In this document: positions 10,451 to 17,324 of the stretch, one piece after another
Position numbering within the stretch: position 1 is the stretch's first letter
Layout: each line of letters opens with the position of its first letter
Assembly: GCA_902627615.1 (NCBI GenBank)
Contig: CACOJW010000001.1
Location: 71,342 to 135,341, forward strand
Reading direction: 5' to 3'
DNA length: 64,000 nt
Origin: an uncultured marine group III euryarchaeote
Lineage (GTDB): Archaea; Thermoplasmatota; Poseidoniia; MGIII; CG-Epi1
Translations under genes and position numbers: made by a program
Notes under the pieces: model-generated
Databases searched by the model: none
What the model saw: only the letters and a program-made list of their open reading frames with translations
What the model was told of the DNA's origin: nothing

Positions 10451-11353
10451 GTGACAATATCAATCAAGAGGCATAGTGAAAATATATTTTGGTTCGATTT
10501 AAGTCCTAACAAAGAATTAGAATTTATATCAATTTATTTGGTTGTAGATGATAAAATTGCGCTGATTGAAACAGGTCCTGCTTGTTCACTTGATAATTTA
10601 GTGAGCGGTATAAAATCAGCAGGATTGAAGCTTGAAAATGTAGATTATGTAGTTCCTACACACATTCATTTGGATCATTTTGGAGGTGGAGGTCATATTA
10701 TGGAGCTTTGTAAGAATGCAAAGGCACTTGTTCACCCTAAGGCGTACAAACATGTTTCTAATATAGAAAAATGGTGGCAAGGAAGTAGTGATTTTTTAGG
10801 CAGAGTTGCTCAACTTTATGGAAAACCTAAACCGATTTCAGAAGATAGGCTCGTTTCTACTGTAGATGGCTTTGAAGTTTCCCTAGGCAGCCTTTCTTTG
10901 AAGGCAATACACACACCAGGCCATGCACCTCATCATATTACTTGGATTTATGGGGATGAAGCATTTGTAGGTGATTCAGCAGGACTTTGGTATCCAGAGG
11001 TGGGTTCTTCATTTCCAGTTACGCCAGGATACTACAGGCATGATTTAGCGTTGGAAAGTATTAAAAAAATGGAATCACTTAATTTAAAAAATGTTTTTTA
11101 CACTCATTTTGGTCCGAGGCCTGTGTATAATACGTTTGAAGAAACAAGGAAAGAATTTGAGTTATGGATGAATATAGTAGAAGAAGGATATAATCAACAA
11201 TTGTCTTCTAAAGAAATATTACAAATGTTATTTAATAAACGACCTGGGTTATTAGAGACTAATCAAAATCATGGAATTCATCAAAAAGATACTCATAAAA
11301 GTACGGTGGAGGGAATGATTGGTTGGCTAAGGAGAAAAAATGAGAAATACTGA
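10451..11353 (+). CDS. Metallo-beta-lactamase fold hydrolase
   Basis: THIHLDHFGG, TPGHAPHH, GD and THFG metal-binding motifs. Confidence 0.9.
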   Translation: MTISIKRHSENIFWFDLSPNKELEFISIYLVVDDKIALIETGPACSLDNLVSGIKSAGLKLENVDYVVPTHIHLDHFGGGGHIMELCKNAKALVHPKAYKHVSNIEKWWQGSSDFLGRVAQLYGKPKPISEDRLVSTVDGFEVSLGSLSLKAIHTPGHAPHHITWIYGDEAFVGDSAGLWYPEVGSSFPVTPGYYRHDLALESIKKMESLNLKNVFYTHFGPRPVYNTFEETRKEFELWMNIVEEGYNQQLSSKEILQMLFNKRPGLLETNQNHGIHQKDTHKSTVEGMIGWLRRKNEKY

Positions 11354-11915
11354 AAAAATTCCTAAAATTGTCAAGGAGCCTTACCCTCATGTGGTAGTGA
11401 AAGATTTTCTTGATGAACAAACTTTAGATTTAGTCACTTATGCTTTGGCAGGACTGGAATATGATTTTGATGAATCGGATTTATTTAGTTATCTTTCTTT
11501 TGGATTAACCGATGTCGATCATCCAGTCATAAACATTCTTAGAGATGATTTAGGCGATTCAAGTTGGCGGAAGAAAGTTGCAAGTAGTTTTGGAGTTAAG
11601 CCCTTGTCTAAGATTGATTTGAGTGCTTATGTTTATGGTCTTGGTTCTTTTCTTTTGCCACACGATGATCAAGTTGAAGGCCGTGTTATAGCCTATAGTT
11701 TGCATTTGACAGATATTGAAATGACTGATAAAAGTGGGGGTGCACTCTGTATTTACGAAGCAAATGAGGTGGGCAAATCAGAATTAGTAAAAACGATTAT
11801 TCCAGAATATAATTCTTTGATAATGTTTGAGGTGTCTGATAAGTCTTGGCACCAAGTAGGCGAAATTTTAGAAGATATTCAAAGATTAACAGTCACGGGG
11901 TGGTATCATTCCTGA
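11340..11915 (+). CDS. 2OG-Fe(II) prolyl-hydroxylase-type oxygenase resembling the OGFOD1/Tpa1 catalytic domain
   Basis: HxD in LLPHDD, GGAL, distal His in SWHQV and 2OG-binding Arg in RLTVTGWY. Confidence 0.85.
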   Translation: MRNTEKIPKIVKEPYPHVVVKDFLDEQTLDLVTYALAGLEYDFDESDLFSYLSFGLTDVDHPVINILRDDLGDSSWRKKVASSFGVKPLSKIDLSAYVYGLGSFLLPHDDQVEGRVIAYSLHLTDIEMTDKSGGALCIYEANEVGKSELVKTIIPEYNSLIMFEVSDKSWHQVGEILEDIQRLTVTGWYHS

Positions 11916-12462
11916 AATTAATTTTTACTATTTAGAAGAAGCCACAATTTCTAATTTGAATCGTATCTTCAACTCTTCAGATTTTCCTTTTGTTCGTCTT
12001 TCGAAGTTTTTAGATATAGACTCAGTTGAGTATAATCCTAGTTTTAGAAATGAGGAGAATATAGGTTATTTTAAGCGAAAGCAGTCAAAAGCAGTTCTTG
12101 AGGAGTTTTGGAAATCTTCAGATTTTGTTGAGTTTTTAAAGGAAGTAACTGGATTGACTTTATCGTTTAGAGGCGCAAAACATTTGAGTTATTCAGCAGG
12201 TGACTATTCATTATTACATGCAGATGAATTAGAACCAAATAGATTAGCAATAGTTTATGATTTTACAAAGAAATGGAGATTAGAGTGGGGAGGATATGAT
12301 CTTTACACATCCCCAGATAAGGAACCTTTGATTTGTAATAGAGATTATGGATCACTCATGATTGTTAAACTTGATAAGGGCGATTTATCTTGCACAAGAT
12401 ACGTTAGTTTGAAAGCAAAAGAGGATGCAGTTATCGATTTTGTAACCTATATACCGGAATGA
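11905..12462 (+). CDS. Degenerate 2OG-oxygenase-fold protein resembling the OGFOD1/Tpa1/Ofd1 C-terminal domain; start uncertain
   Basis: GDYSLLH, WRLEWGGY and GSLMIV...RYV motifs; no obvious distal His. The frame is open from 11890 but the first canonical start is TTG at 11956. Confidence 0.7.
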   Translation: MIPEINFYYLEEATISNLNRIFNSSDFPFVRLSKFLDIDSVEYNPSFRNEENIGYFKRKQSKAVLEEFWKSSDFVEFLKEVTGLTLSFRGAKHLSYSAGDYSLLHADELEPNRLAIVYDFTKKWRLEWGGYDLYTSPDKEPLICNRDYGSLMIVKLDKGDLSCTRYVSLKAKEDAVIDFVTYIPE

Positions 12463-12551: not shown

Positions 12552-13247
12552 ATGCTAGATGTAGAAAAGATTAGTAAAACGCTAAGAAAGGGAGAACCTA
12601 TCTTGGTTTTTGATGAGGCGGGTAGGGAAGGTGAAACAGATATTTTCTTTTCTGCAAAACATGTATCAAATTCAAGTATACGTTTTTTAAGAAAAAAAGG
12701 AGGAGGTATGATCTTCATAGCCTCAGATAATTTAGCATCTACAAAATTAGGACTCCCTTTTTCTCACGATATTTTTGAATCAGTTGGTAAAATAAGTGAT
12801 GACTTTACAGTAGTTAGAAAAATGCTTGAACATACGATACCCTATGATAAGAAGTCTTCATTTTCTCTTTTTATTAATCATAAAGATACTTTTACAGGTA
12901 TAAGTGATTATGATAGAGCCTTAACATCGAAGTCTTTTGCAGAACTATTGGAGGCATCAGTCTCACTTTCAGACTCTGAATCTCAGAAGAAAATATCAGA
13001 TAGCTTCCGAATACCTGGGCACGTACCAGTTTGTATTGCAGACCAAGAACTTGTGAAAGCCCGTAAAGGCCACACAGAGTTAATTGTTTCTTTGTTAAAA
13101 TTACTCAATATGAATCCGGTGGCAGTGGGTTGTGAAATGGTAGGAGATGACGGCAATTCTTTATCACCAGAAAACGCGAAAGCTTGGGCATCAGAAGAAG
13201 GGTATCTGTTTTTAGAAGGGCAAAGTATAGTTGAGGCATACCTATGA
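12552..13247 (+). CDS. ribB: 3,4-dihydroxy-2-butanone-4-phosphate synthase (archaeal type)
   Basis: FDEAGREGETD, TFTGISDYDRA, FRIPGHV, RKGHTE and CEM motifs. Confidence 0.93.
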   Translation: MLDVEKISKTLRKGEPILVFDEAGREGETDIFFSAKHVSNSSIRFLRKKGGGMIFIASDNLASTKLGLPFSHDIFESVGKISDDFTVVRKMLEHTIPYDKKSSFSLFINHKDTFTGISDYDRALTSKSFAELLEASVSLSDSESQKKISDSFRIPGHVPVCIADQELVKARKGHTELIVSLLKLLNMNPVAVGCEMVGDDGNSLSPENAKAWASEEGYLFLEGQSIVEAYL

Positions 13248-13687
13248 GAGTAGTAGCAACAGGTGTCTTCGATATTATCCACTCAGGACATGCACATTTT
13301 TTGAATGCAGCTAAAGAAAATGGAGATGAATTGGTTGTCATAATAGCCAATGATGATACAGTTCGCAAAATGAAAGGAGAACCTATACTTTCAGCAGAAA
13401 TGAGAGCGGAGGTTGTATCTCATCTGAAACCAGTTAGCTCTACGGTTATTGGAAGAACGGGAAATATGCTTGATATCATAGTTGAAGAAATTAAGCCGGA
13501 TGTAATTGCTTTAGGTTATGATCAAAGATTGTTTACCAGAAAAGAATTAGAATCAAAATTATTAGAGCGTGGATTAAATGTTAAAGTTGTTCGTTTGCCA
13601 GAGATGGAGCAAGATTTAGCAGGATCACGTAAAATAATAGCTAAGATTTTAAAGATTTACAGGAAAAAATATATTGAGGAAGAATAA
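13244..13687 (+). CDS. ribL: FAD synthase (archaeal cytidylyltransferase-like)
   Basis: TGVFDIIHSGH (HxGH) and PDVIALGYDQ; lies in the riboflavin operon. Confidence 0.85.
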   Translation: MRVVATGVFDIIHSGHAHFLNAAKENGDELVVIIANDDTVRKMKGEPILSAEMRAEVVSHLKPVSSTVIGRTGNMLDIIVEEIKPDVIALGYDQRLFTRKELESKLLERGLNVKVVRLPEMEQDLAGSRKIIAKILKIYRKKYIEEE

Positions 13688-13689
13688 AA

Positions 13690-14313
13690 ATGGTTTTTAG
13701 TGGAATTGTAGAGGGGACTGGTAAAATTATTACAGTTTCTAAACTAGAAAATTTGACAAAAATTTCAATTAAAACTCCTCAAAAATTTTCGGATGGTATA
13801 AAAATTGGAGCAAGCGTTTGTGTTGATGGGGTATGCTTAACTGTATCCTCAATAAGTGATGACGTTCTTAGTTTTGATATTATAATGGAGACTCTGAATG
13901 TTACAACTTTTAAAAATATTAAAAAGAAAGATGTTGTTAATTTAGAGCGTTCAATGAGATTAGGAGATGAAATAGGTGGCCATTTACTTTCAGGTCACAT
14001 TTCGACAACAGTTCAAATTAGTAACATAGAAAATCCAGAAAATAATCATATAATTACATTTAAATTAGATCCAGAAACTTTAAGGTATATTTTTCCGAAA
14101 GGTTATGTTGCATTAAACGGAGTTAGTTTAACTGTAGGGGAGGTTGAAAAATCAAATAATAGTTTCAATGTTTATCTCATACCCGAAACTTTACGTTTAA
14201 CTAATTTGAGTAATAAATCTATAGGCGATAAAATAAATTTAGAAATTGAGACACAGACAAAAAATATGGTTGATACAATGCTCCAAATAAACAAGGAGTT
14301 AATACATGGCTAA
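13690..14313 (+). CDS. ribE: Riboflavin synthase, bacterial-type alpha chain
   Basis: N-terminal FSGIVE, duplicated GVCLTV/GVSLTV lumazine-binding repeats, VNLERS and GGHLLSGH. Confidence 0.93.
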   Translation: MVFSGIVEGTGKIITVSKLENLTKISIKTPQKFSDGIKIGASVCVDGVCLTVSSISDDVLSFDIIMETLNVTTFKNIKKKDVVNLERSMRLGDEIGGHLLSGHISTTVQISNIENPENNHIITFKLDPETLRYIFPKGYVALNGVSLTVGEVEKSNNSFNVYLIPETLRLTNLSNKSIGDKINLEIETQTKNMVDTMLQINKELIHG

Positions 14314-14710
14314 ATCAATAGCAATAGTAGCAGGAAGTTATCACAGAGAATTAGTTGAGAAAATGGTTGAAAAGGCTAAGTCAGTAGCTTCTGAGAATAA
14401 TCTTATTGTTGAAGAGATAAACTGGGTACCAGGCACTATGGAAGTTCCATTACAGATTAAGCGCTTATTTCTTAGAGAATCAATTGATGGGGCTGCAGTT
14501 TTAGGAATCATTGAGAGTGGAGAAACTAAGCATGGCTTAGTCATGGGACAAGCAGTTACAAGTTCTTTAGTTGATTTACAGTTGGCCTCGATGAAGCCGA
14601 TAGGCTTTGGAATTATAGGACCAGGGGCTAAGCCAGAACATCTTGAGGATAGACTGTTGCCATACGCAGAAAATGCCATTTTAGCTTTATCCGATATGCT
14701 ATCTAATTAG
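14306..14710 (+). CDS. ribH: 6,7-dimethyl-8-ribityllumazine synthase
   Basis: VPGTMEVP, GETKH and KPIGFGIIGPG motifs; operon context. Confidence 0.9.
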   Translation: MAKSIAIVAGSYHRELVEKMVEKAKSVASENNLIVEEINWVPGTMEVPLQIKRLFLRESIDGAAVLGIIESGETKHGLVMGQAVTSSLVDLQLASMKPIGFGIIGPGAKPEHLEDRLLPYAENAILALSDMLSN

Positions 14711-17324
14711 ATTTTGTTTTAATTCTCCAGTTTCTTTTTGCATATTTATTTTGTACATAATTCAATGCATGATAGAAACTTGGTAATGCAAATACAGCCA
14801 TCAGTAACGAAAATAAAACTAAGGTAATAATTAAAGCAAAGAAATTTCGTAATCCAACAAATTGAGTTCTGTAAAAGGAAATAATGACACCTGAGAAAAC
14901 TCCTCCCATTGTTGTGAATGTTGCTTCGACAACGGATTGACCAGTATTTTCTACGGCTTTTTGGATACCTTTTGGAGTAGCCCCTTCTTCTCTAACTCTT
15001 TCAGTTATTTGTATAGAATTATCTATACCGATACCTATGATAATAGTTCCAACCATTGCTGTAAAAATATTTAGATTTGTACCTCCAGCATCAACTGTAG
15101 CAGGATACCAGAGAATAACTAATAGAATTGGCAAGAACGTAACAAATCCATATTTTACAGACCAAAATATACAAATCATAGCAATTAAGACTAACACTAA
15201 ACTCAATTTTATCGTGTCAAATTGCGTCTCTTGTATACCTTCGTTAATTGCTATAGATACAGGAGGTCCTCCTGTAAGCGTAGACATTTGTGCATTCTCA
15301 AATGACATTTGTCTGTCTCTGATTTCTGCAATTTGATCTATAGTTTTTACAACAATAGCCGTATCATCTATGTTTACGTATGGCATACTAACATAGATTA
15401 GAGCTTTATCGTATTCATCAGTTAGAAGCATAGACCTCATTTCATCAGTAAAAGATTCGTAAAAGACATCTATCATATCAGATCTAAGTTGTTCTCTGCT
15501 GTATATCTGATTTAAATCTACTAATGCATAATCGTCCCCAAAGAAATCACTGTGTAAGAAATCCCAGAAACTTCCTTCAAATTGATAAATTGCTTCCCCA
15601 TCTAAATCTTCTATTACTATTGCAAAATAAGCAGATTTAAAAAAATCCACAATTGAAAACGCAGAGACATTAATGACATCTCCTGTATTTCTATTATTCA
15701 CAGTGATGTTATTAATTTCCCCTTGAGTCCAATTCATAATATCGAGAACATCTAAATCCTTAGCAGCAGGTTTGTCTCTTGCAGTATCGTTATTTATTAA
15801 TAAAATTCCAGTTTGACCTGCATCAAATTTGTCTGAGTATTCACTTAATTTTTGTATTGAATCAACATCCTCAGGTGCAGATTCACTGCCAGTTATGTTT
15901 TGATCCATAACTGAAATTCTAGCTATGGAATAAGTGGTTGTTAATAGAACAACTACGAGAATTGCCTTCCATTGTTTTGTAGATAGTATCGCAATGCTAG
16001 TCCATCCTTTATTCTTATGTCTGGAATAGTTTGTTAATTTCATTATTGCAGGCGTCATGCTCACAGTTAAGAAGAAAGAACAAATAACTCCAATAATCAT
16101 CGTAAGGCCGACAGTTCTCATTGGAACTATCGGTGATATGAAAAGAGCCGAAAATCCTATGGAATCAGTAATAGCACATAGTAATGTTGCCTTCCCCGTC
16201 GTTAAAAGTGCTAAGTATGTAGCCTTAGGCATTTTATTTCCTTCTTCTTTGAATTCAACAATTCTGTTAGCTACATGCAGTCCATAATCAACACCAATAC
16301 CTACTAAAATTGGACCTGCGGCGACAATCATCGGAGTAAGAACAACCCCAGATAGATTTACCAATCCTAATGTCCAAATTAGTGCACAGAAAATTGGGAC
16401 TAAAACAACAGGGATTGCTAACCAATTTCGATGGAATATAAGCATCAAAGCAATGACTATTCCAAGAGACATAGGCAGCATTGTTAGCAAATCTTGGTAT
16501 AATCTATCAGTAACTTCATGAAGAACAACTACTATTCCAGTTTGCGTCATTTCAGTTTTTGGATTTATTCTTTCATCAATATGATTTTGTATTTCTATTA
16601 TTTTTTGTTTTTGTACTTCGTCATTGTTCTCTTCCGATGCTTTAAGAGCAAAAAGAATTACAGCTGTATCTATGATTCCATCATCATTTGTATCTACAGC
16701 AAAATTTTGGAGTGAAGATGCAGTTCCTGAAAAGATTTGGTCTACTCTATCCTGATCATCAGGAATTGCGTACGTTCCGGTTTGATTTACGAGATCATCG
16801 TCACTTTCTTCTACGGCAAGACCTCCAAATATCTTCCCTTCACTTGCTTCTATAAATCGTGCATTAGTTGAATTAAACTCTTTAATTAATGTAGAAATAC
16901 TAAGTGTAAATATTATGTCATCTTTTTCGCCTCGATCGGCCTGGTATGTTCCTAAGTCAGTAGTTTGTCCATAGGGATCTATCGTTTGTTCAAGTAAGGA
17001 AATTTCTTTTAATGTTGGAACGTATGTGATGTTGTCTAGCACAGGATCGTTGTAAAATTGAGGGTCATTCGCATTTGGAGTTTCTAGGTAAACAATAATT
17101 AAATCAGTCGCCCAGTCTTCTCTTACTTCTATTAAAATATCCGTTGATTCTTCCCCTTCAGGAAGATAAACCTCAATGTCTCTAGTCATATTCTGCTCAA
17201 AAGTCATAGCAGATTGAAGGAGCAATATTGTAACTAGTGAAAGAGCTGCTACAGTTAGTACTGGTCTCTTCATAATGACGTCCGTATATTTTTGAACTAC
17301 GAACTCTAATGTCTTTTGAAGCAC
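14703..17324 (-). CDS. RND/MMPL family transporter
   Basis: Two repeats of an extracellular loop plus TM bundle, with GIGVDYGLH and GIGIDNSIQ motifs. Confidence 0.9.
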   Translation of the reverse strand: MLQKTLEFVVQKYTDVIMKRPVLTVAALSLVTILLLQSAMTFEQNMTRDIEVYLPEGEESTDILIEVREDWATDLIIVYLETPNANDPQFYNDPVLDNITYVPTLKEISLLEQTIDPYGQTTDLGTYQADRGEKDDIIFTLSISTLIKEFNSTNARFIEASEGKIFGGLAVEESDDDLVNQTGTYAIPDDQDRVDQIFSGTASSLQNFAVDTNDDGIIDTAVILFALKASEENNDEVQKQKIIEIQNHIDERINPKTEMTQTGIVVVLHEVTDRLYQDLLTMLPMSLGIVIALMLIFHRNWLAIPVVLVPIFCALIWTLGLVNLSGVVLTPMIVAAGPILVGIGVDYGLHVANRIVEFKEEGNKMPKATYLALLTTGKATLLCAITDSIGFSALFISPIVPMRTVGLTMIIGVICSFFLTVSMTPAIMKLTNYSRHKNKGWTSIAILSTKQWKAILVVVLLTTTYSIARISVMDQNITGSESAPEDVDSIQKLSEYSDKFDAGQTGILLINNDTARDKPAAKDLDVLDIMNWTQGEINNITVNNRNTGDVINVSAFSIVDFFKSAYFAIVIEDLDGEAIYQFEGSFWDFLHSDFFGDDYALVDLNQIYSREQLRSDMIDVFYESFTDEMRSMLLTDEYDKALIYVSMPYVNIDDTAIVVKTIDQIAEIRDRQMSFENAQMSTLTGGPPVSIAINEGIQETQFDTIKLSLVLVLIAMICIFWSVKYGFVTFLPILLVILWYPATVDAGGTNLNIFTAMVGTIIIGIGIDNSIQITERVREEGATPKGIQKAVENTGQSVVEATFTTMGGVFSGVIISFYRTQFVGLRNFFALIITLVLFSLLMAVFALPSFYHALNYVQNKYAKRNWRIKTKSN

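Follow-up and report, generated by a model that had tools for sequence, protein, structure and literature searches.

An archaeal gene pair from Marine Group III matching the two domains of the ribosomal prolyl hydroxylases OGFOD1, Tpa1 and Ofd1

Two adjacent genes in a 64,000-nucleotide (nt) stretch of DNA from an uncultured Marine Group III euryarchaeote (GenBank assembly GCA_902627615.1, contig CACOJW010000001.1, positions 71,342 to 135,341; the whole stretch is referred to as the window) encode, as separate proteins, the counterparts of the two domains that are joined in one chain in the eukaryotic ribosomal prolyl hydroxylases OGFOD1 (human), Tpa1 (S. cerevisiae) and Ofd1 (S. pombe). The product of the first open reading frame (ORF1) is the counterpart of the catalytic Fe(II)/2-oxoglutarate (2OG) domain, and that of the second (ORF2) is a non-catalytic second beta-helix domain of the OGFOD1 type (Table 1). 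The homology and the split of the pair are secure, and the two-gene arrangement is conserved throughout Marine Group III as well as in many members of the phylum to which a Woesearchaeota genome belongs (hereafter, the second archaeal group). We assign a probability of roughly 60% to the reading that the pair is a two-gene version of OGFOD1/Tpa1/Ofd1, the two proteins of which would form a heterodimer that hydroxylates the decoding-centre proline in the KQPNS loop of ribosomal protein uS12.

The catalytic half of the pair

A preliminary description, made from the letters of the window alone, had placed the two frames within 11340-12462 and read them as homologs of the two halves of OGFOD1/Tpa1. 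Both frames are indeed found there, on the plus strand, the gene order of the pair is the domain order of the fused enzyme, and all the ORF1 motifs that were listed (EPYPH, LLPHDDQVEGRVIAY, GGAL, PEYNSLIMFEVS, SWHQVGE and RLTVTGWYH) are present. ORF1 matches the Pfam families 2OG-FeII_Oxy_4 (expectation value E 8e-23) and 2OG-FeII_Oxy_3 (E 9.5e-15). Among solved structures its best relative is human OGFOD1 (4nhx, E 2.5e-21 over residues 12-190), with yeast Tpa1 second (about E 2e-10); a Streptomyces hydroxylase (E 4.4e-5) and a protein named as a prolyl 4-hydroxylase (P4H; E 0.14) come after these. This ranking agrees with the homology proposed earlier, all other hydroxylases being found at E 4.4e-5 or above.

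Judged from its sequence, ORF1 is a catalytic domain with the full HxD...H iron triad and the 2OG-binding arginine. The residues of OGFOD1 were mapped in the numbering of Horita 2015 (chain index equals residue number plus 20), which puts sixteen anchor residues named in that paper on the correct letters. Among 43 archaeal ORF1-type sequences His108 and Asp110 are invariant, and His171 and Arg182 are conserved in at least 90%. The triad and the RxS arginine motif by which the catalytic domain of the OGFOD1/Tpa1/Ofd1 subfamily is recognised are thus both found in ORF1, with the serine of OGFOD1 replaced by threonine (RxT).

A high-GC relative from the same order (genome G025, locus L014, 2934-3515, minus strand) departs from this pattern. 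Its ORF1 has tyrosine in place of the distal histidine and valine in place of the 2OG-binding arginine, and it retains ORF2, with a GTG start in the usual 8-nt overlap. By its residues, this pair may be an inactive pseudo-enzyme pair.

The non-catalytic half

The homology proposed for ORF2 was upheld both at the level of sequence and at that of fold. ORF2 scores 37.3 bits on the Pfam family Ofd1_CTDD (PF10637; cut-off 27 bits; E 2.7e-9), and a 12-sequence ORF2 profile run against solved chains has OGFOD1 as its sole match below E 1 (E 4.6e-7). This match is colinear with the C-terminal half of OGFOD1, profile positions 4-50 corresponding to chain positions 290-334 and 91-171 to 458-541. The AlphaFold model of the 184-residue ORF2 is of good quality (predicted local distance difference test, pLDDT, 89.4; predicted template modelling score, pTM, 0.87), and its top nine Foldseek matches are the Ofd1 C-terminal domain (6e0t, the best, E 2.1e-9), OGFOD1 and Tpa1. 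Superposition with VIA-align gave Z 20.7 for OGFOD1 residues 265-542 (root-mean-square deviation 2.1 over 177 residues, 22% identity) and Z 20.3 for 6e0t, versus Z of at most 16.4 for other 2OG oxygenases.

The HxD...H...R set is absent from ORF2-type proteins (41 sequences), and the position of the distal histidine is taken by an invariant tyrosine (Tyr165 in ORF2), in agreement with the remark in the preliminary description that ORF2 has no clear distal histidine. ORF2 is therefore a non-catalytic domain, as is the second domain of OGFOD1: it is of the Ofd1_CTDD type and without a metal site. The motifs GDYSLLH, WRLEWGGY and SLMIV...RYV were also found as described. The remaining one, IN..YL, exists as INFYYL in the same frame, but lies 5' of the TTG at 11956 from which ORF2 had been listed to start, so that the motif stands and that start is called into question.

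The junction between the two genes

ORF1 and ORF2 are read in different frames, and the start of ORF2 overlaps the stop of ORF1 (11913-11915). Relative to ORF1, the frame of ORF2 is shifted by +1, and it is open back to 11890. At all 11 loci of genus relatives ORF2 begins with an ATG within the last ORF1 codons, in an 8-nt overlap of the type ATGNCTGA, and this overlap start encodes M-x-(D/E)-I-N-F-Y-Y-L. A larger set of 45 loci from two archaeal phyla (the window, L002-L014, L025 and L033-L062) has a C-type ORF following an N-type ORF on the same strand without exception. At 42 of these loci ATG, GTG or TTG occurs between 14 nt before and 1 nt after the ORF1 stop; the starts lie mostly 8 or 11 nt ahead of the stop and are often made up of the His codon CAT plus a G. 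The exceptions are the window itself (ATT), L061 (start 69 nt downstream) and L013. The last of these (genome G026, 2788-2795) has CTG at the conserved ORF2 start in the 8-nt overlap and is a second non-canonical case. Instead of the one chain with a linker of the OGFOD1/Tpa1/Ofd1 subfamily, two frames and an ORF1 stop are seen at 45 of 45 loci. A word-index search with 758 candidates yielded no longer (fused) relative of ORF1, which is weak evidence.

Most likely, ORF2 runs from 11908 to 12462 and not from 11956. A start at the TTG would cost 16 residues, including the conserved INFYYL with Asn5, Tyr8 and Leu9, which are invariant in 12 ORF2 sequences. The third-position changes seen in relatives preserve N-F-Y-Y-L, which indicates that the stretch before the TTG is coding, and database homologs of ORF2 are mostly 184 amino acids (aa) long and begin at the position equivalent to 11908. 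The codon at 11908-11910 is ATT. Contigs from three DNA runs of three studies span 11874-11955, with no other letter listed for this codon and no insertion or deletion across this interval. Given this agreement, the ATT and the frame offset are not assembly errors. The two genes are probably translationally coupled, and ORF2, with its ATT, would probably depend on initiation at a near-cognate codon or on ribosomes that re-initiate once they have terminated on ORF1.

The predicted heterodimer

ORF1 and ORF2 are predicted to form a heterodimer that rebuilds the two-domain enzyme. Three runs of structure prediction for the complex gave interface scores (ipSAE) of 0.75, 0.75 and 0.77, whereas none of three controls scored above 0.00; contacts agreed between runs to at least 94%, and the partner pLDDT was 91. 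Of 80 solved complexes 58 attain this ipSAE mark, as do 2 of 110 mismatched pairs, a calibration that is only rough here since our own alignments were used for the prediction. The predicted contacts involve ORF1 residues 46-48, 102-109, 139-147 and 170-177, and ORF2 residues 50-56, 98-103, 132 and 162-169. The modelled interface is thus made of the ORF1 strands bearing the HxD motif and the distal histidine, together with their ORF2 counterparts; the corresponding strands of OGFOD1 belong to the minor sheets through which its two domains pack (Horita 2015).

Candidate substrate and alternative readings

Of the ten residues that line the substrate groove of OGFOD1 (Horita 2015), six are identical in ORF1: Trp236 (ORF1 Trp188), Arg162 (Arg115), Leu152 (Leu105), Asp140 (Asp93), Leu95 (Leu48) and Asp156 (Asp109). 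All six are invariant or at least 90% conserved in the 43 archaeal sequences. Two further positions show conservative changes (Tyr96 to Phe49, Leu159 to Val112). The genome has a uS12 gene (L022, 1255-1833) that carries VGVEAKQPNSGIRK; its product matches eukaryotic uS12/RPS23 chains at about E 1e-44 and its nearest archaeal S12P chains at E 4e-57, and the loop proposed as target differs little between this archaeon and eukaryotes, being near-identical. In fission yeast, Ofd1 is reported to act on Rps23 before its assembly into the ribosome (PMC5690285), and by analogy we assume that the archaeal pair would act on free uS12. The heterodimer would then use O2 and 2OG to hydroxylate the KQPNS proline of the free protein. 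After assembly the modified proline would sit at the decoding centre, where its hydroxylation may tune the accuracy of decoding or termination by the supply of oxygen, iron or 2OG.

Several observations weigh against this proposal. Two of the ten groove residues differ (Lys91 is Asp44 in ORF1, and Gln100 falls in a gap), and Tyr169 of OGFOD1, which contacts 2OG, is replaced by histidine in the Marine Group III genus. The KQPNS loop is general in archaeal uS12, so its presence permits the proposed reaction but does not discriminate. Since the structures of OGFOD1 and Tpa1 are solved, the score of the predicted complex may reflect likeness or recall rather than independent evidence, and the standalone AlphaFold model of ORF1 (from a 12-row alignment) was poor (pLDDT 47.5) and was set aside. 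The canonical start codon of ORF2 is absent from its conserved place in this genome, and the loss of the distal histidine and the arginine in G025 means that not all copies are active oxygenases. At the 45 loci, for which gene context was taken from flanks of 1.5-3 kb, no gene neighbour pointing to the ribosome or translation was found. The sole contig from an RNA library spans 11415-11571 (157 nt of ORF1) and possibly stems from DNA carry-over. Many members of the second archaeal group, moreover, are thought to live without oxygen.

Among the alternatives, one accepts the pair as a true split relative of OGFOD1 with the same heterodimer and gives it another target, be it a different translation protein, some other protein or a small molecule. 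The altered groove residues and the histidine at the Tyr169 position speak for it, as do the roles of eukaryotic Ofd1 beyond uS12 that are reported in PMC5690285 and bioRxiv 10.1101/363747. A match of ORF1 to the NCBIfam family YhhC (NF041706, peptide-modifying 2OG oxygenases), at 51.7 bits well below the curated cut-off of 150, points the same way. The six identical groove residues, their high conservation in Archaea and the near-identity of the target loop argue for uS12 instead, and neither a precursor-peptide gene nor a conserved neighbour is found at the 31 loci of the second archaeal group. We regard another target as unlikely on balance, though it has to be taken seriously. On a far less probable view, ORF1 would be a prolyl or peptide hydroxylase of the generic bacterial kind, and ORF2 an unrelated, cupin-like protein whose likeness to the C-terminal domain is superficial. 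The double-stranded beta-helix fold is common to all of these proteins, generic oxygenases reach Z 14-16 against the ORF2 model, and ORF2 comes nearly to the cut-off of 2OG-FeII_Oxy_4 (26.6 versus 27 bits). However, OGFOD1, Ofd1 and Tpa1 outrank all others in sequence for both ORFs and in fold for ORF2, the tree joins each archaeal type, N or C, to the corresponding half of the fused proteins at 100/100 support, and the linkage of ORF1 to ORF2 holds at every one of the 45 loci.

The junction itself lends itself to two further explanations. In one, a +1 ribosomal shift near the ORF1 stop would yield a single, fused, eukaryote-like protein in this genome, in which the ATG has become ATT. The +1 frame of ORF2, open from 11890 and overlapping the end of ORF1, fits such a shift, and so does the lack of a canonical start at the conserved place, confirmed by three runs. 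Yet the codons TCC TGA at the stop offer no +1 re-pairing, the normal start is kept in 11 of 11 genus relatives and at 42 of 45 loci, which favours separate initiation, and the ATT, like the CTG of L013 and the GTG of L014 at this position, can be taken as a near-cognate or alternative start; we consider a frameshift highly improbable. In the other, the split would be an assembly error or a decaying, frameshifted gene, a suspicion that any two adjacent frames offset by one base will raise. This was rejected, its likelihood being negligible: the offset and the stop recur at all 45 loci in two archaeal phyla, the contigs of the three DNA runs are free of insertions and deletions, and the catalytic residues are conserved. 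Overall, the two-gene prolyl hydroxylase acting on uS12 is the reading that we prefer.

Distribution among Archaea

An ORF2 homolog with 56% identity is itself named as belonging to a Marine Group III euryarchaeote. Of 24 other genomes of the genus, 22 have ORF1, as do both genomes from a second family of the order; it was found in none of 14 sampled genomes of the two other families of the class. An alignment of archaeal ORF2 sequences (A6) matched 12 of 401 genomes sampled from the phylum, namely that of the window, all 10 of its family and one marginal case (E 7e-4). The Pfam family PF10637 proved insensitive as a genome probe: it detected 7 of the 401 genomes overall, and no more than 6 of the 10 members of the family to which the window belongs.

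Beyond this phylum, a HMMER search with the ORF2 profile over 1.84 billion representative proteins gave 542 matches at E of 0.001 or below. Among 144 newly listed matches, 112 have 165-230 aa, nearly all of them starting with M-x-I-N-x-x-Y-L, and 19 have at least 330 aa. A sub-alignment scan of species-representative genomes returned five loci, all in Candidatus Woesearchaeota records, and two Woesearchaeota loci (L025 and L027) carry the same overlapping pair. When the phylum of a Woesearchaeota genome was sampled, 75 of 401 genomes matched, nearly all of them at two adjacent places. In the ESM Atlas the neighbours of ORF2 fall into clusters automatically named Ofd1_CTDD that are about 90% archaeal, with Nanobdellota as the commonest phylum; this label is, in other words, already present in the automatic annotation of archaeal proteins. 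In 50,697 phage records, neither ORF1 nor ORF2 had a tblastn match at E 1e-3. Separately, 18 of 30 ESM Atlas feature matches for ORF2 are virus-labelled clusters without a Pfam family (score 0.95).

The pairs of the second archaeal group (L023-L062) share with those of Marine Group III the gene order, the stop/start overlap and the catalytic residues, although their identity to the window is as low as 22-36% for ORF1 and 18-28% for ORF2. Their ORF1 retains the groove lysine and glutamine (equivalents of Lys91 and Gln100) as well as the equivalent of Tyr169, which are changed in the Marine Group III copies, and has some 20 additional N-terminal residues, often including W-I-N-P-x-Y-L. A motif of this type (seen in ORF1 of L025 and L033-L062) also stands at the beginning of ORF2 and, in the fused enzymes, of the C-terminal domain; the ORF1 of Marine Group III has no such N-terminal stretch.

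Phylogeny and the fused proteins

Hidden Markov models (HMMs) of the two archaeal halves were run on the long (fused) proteins, which carry no organism names either in this comparison or in the tree. All 19 matched in both halves, with 49-223 bits for the N halves and 55-143 bits for the C halves, and the cross-matches were weaker. The ESM Atlas clusters nearest to one of them (P0123) are 100% eukaryotic OGFOD1. In another (P0206, 1004 aa) the N-type and the C-type stretch each occur twice, so that the whole two-domain unit appears to have been duplicated in tandem; a pattern scan of this protein detected no HxD motif.

An IQ-TREE phylogeny was built from 102 rows, namely the N and C halves of 15 fused proteins together with both members of 30 pairs from the second archaeal group and of 6 pairs from Marine Group III. 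Seven further Marine Group III loci were omitted as near-identical, L037 as coinciding with L027, and four long proteins as partial or aberrant. The bootstrap of the tree is not fully settled, and the support values that follow are to be read with this in mind. N rows and C rows separate at 100/100, which places the duplication that gave rise to the N and C types before two-gene and fused enzymes diverged. The fused proteins, which are of the eukaryote type, stand apart from the archaeal pairs: archaeal N rows form a clade (97/82), as do fused C rows (100/96), while a single group of fused N rows has a support of 57/0 and the base of the C half is not resolved. Together with the HMM scores by half, the 100/100 split indicates orthology to the fused enzymes half by half.

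The Marine Group III rows nest among those of the other archaeal phylum (99/96 for the N half, 99/91 and 97/86 for the C half). As their own phylum otherwise lacks the pair, it appears to have been acquired as a unit, and the Marine Group III lineage probably obtained it from the second archaeal group. As to the direction of the larger event, the tree leaves room both for eukaryotes fusing an archaeal pair and for archaea splitting a eukaryotic gene. A tentative scenario, which we consider possible though rather doubtful as a whole, is that the two-gene form is the older state, the duplication having occurred in Archaea, that eukaryotes received the overlapping pair and fused it, and that some archaea hydroxylate uS12 in an O2-dependent manner. 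Should the archaeal origin be true, the fusion of such an overlapping pair would need little beyond the loss of a stop and the gain of a linker, and a supposedly eukaryotic modification would have begun in Archaea.

Gene surroundings

The pair in the window is preceded by a gene for a metallo-beta-lactamase (MBL)-fold protein and followed directly by a row of riboflavin and flavin adenine dinucleotide (FAD) genes. The order pyrG (minus strand), MBL-fold gene, ORF1, ORF2 and ribB is found at 11 of 11 genus loci and at none of the 34 others. At the 31 loci of the second archaeal group the only recurrent neighbours are the two members of the pair themselves, the next commonest neighbour being present at 5. 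The riboflavin/FAD row consists of a dihydroxybutanone phosphate (DHBP) synthase, a cytidylyltransferase-like protein with a weak FAD_syn match, a riboflavin synthase with two lumazine-binding domains and a lumazine synthase. Beyond it, on the minus strand (14703-17324), an ORF of 873 aa with many hydrophobic stretches resembles a large membrane transporter.

Table 1. Coordinates of the gene pair, its functional sites and its neighbours in the window.
Feature	Position	Strand	Description
MBL-fold gene	10451-11353	+	300 aa; matches Lactamase_B of Pfam (E 2.5e-23); shares 14 nt with the 5' end of ORF1
AGGAG, Shine-Dalgarno-like	11330-11334	+	5 nt 5' of ORF1 ATG; putative, read from the sequence
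ORF1	11340-11915	+	191 aa plus TGA; 2OG/Fe(II) oxygenase, counterpart of OGFOD1/Tpa1 N-terminal domain
His108-Asp109-Asp110 codons	11661-11669	+	HxD of the iron triad; aligned with OGFOD1 H-D-D, His155/Asp157 (numbering of Horita 2015)
His171 codon	11850-11852	+	distal iron ligand; aligned with OGFOD1 His218
Arg182 codon	11883-11885	+	predicted binder of the 2OG C-5 carboxylate; aligned with OGFOD1 Arg230
Overlap of ORF1 end and ORF2 start	11908-11915	+	8 nt, ATTCCTGA; ATT here, ATG in 11/11 genus relatives
ORF2, likeliest translation	11908-12462	+	184 aa plus TGA; non-catalytic double-stranded beta-helix protein, Ofd1_CTDD counterpart
TTG, first canonical start in ORF2 frame	11956-11958	+	start in the ORF list; would give 168 aa (11956-12462)
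Riboflavin/FAD gene row	12552-14710	+	directly 3' of the pair

Comparison with known systems

The OGFOD1/Tpa1/Ofd1 subfamily has been described as "found only in eukaryotes" (Horita 2015), and a 2015 review in the Journal of Biological Chemistry states that eukaryotes and many prokaryotes commonly have protein modifications made by 2OG oxygenases, "but not archaea". The archaeal pair contradicts both statements at the level of gene content. No paper linking the OGFOD1/Tpa1/Ofd1 family to Archaea was found among the matches listed from the full-text literature, with subscription journals and supplements outside the scope of this search. If uS12 hydroxylation by the pair is true, oxygen-linked tuning of the decoding centre would not be peculiar to eukaryotes, and the small archaeal heterodimer would offer a simple system for the role of the non-catalytic domain. 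The pair also illustrates cleanly how genes fuse or split at a junction where stop and start overlap.

Single-domain prolyl hydroxylases (human PHD2/EGLN1, the Pseudomonas P4H, the algal P4H) have in common with the pair the double-stranded beta-helix fold and the cofactors. They have no second, non-catalytic domain or partner, and they match weakly, the best P4H-named chain reaching E 0.14 against ORF1 and Z being at most 15.5 against ORF2. The fungal enzymes Tpa1 and Ofd1 belong to the same two-domain family as the pair, the C-terminal domain of Ofd1 (6e0t) being the top structural match of ORF2. On the other hand, Tpa1 has a 95-residue helical linker and dimerisation inserts (Horita 2015), neither of which is present in the archaeal pair. 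The C-terminal domains of the fungal enzymes bind Ett1 and Nro1 (Horita 2015).

The closest parallel is human OGFOD1 (4nhx, 4nhy), the trans-3 hydroxylase of Pro62 of uS12/RPS23. It shares with ORF1 the catalytic residues His155, Asp157, His218 and Arg230 and six of ten groove residues, and the contact predicted between ORF1 and ORF2 would use the minor-sheet strands through which its own two domains pack. OGFOD1 is one chain with a 31-residue proline-rich linker, whereas the archaeal enzyme would consist of two polypeptides from overlapping genes; its C-terminal domain has about 270 residues versus 184 in ORF2, and its disordered acidic region (371-430) is not in the alignment. The host of OGFOD1 is a eukaryote and that of the pair an archaeon. 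Overall, the pair resembles OGFOD1/Tpa1/Ofd1 and is orthologous to them half by half, but differs from them in their one-chain architecture and in their supposedly eukaryote-only range.

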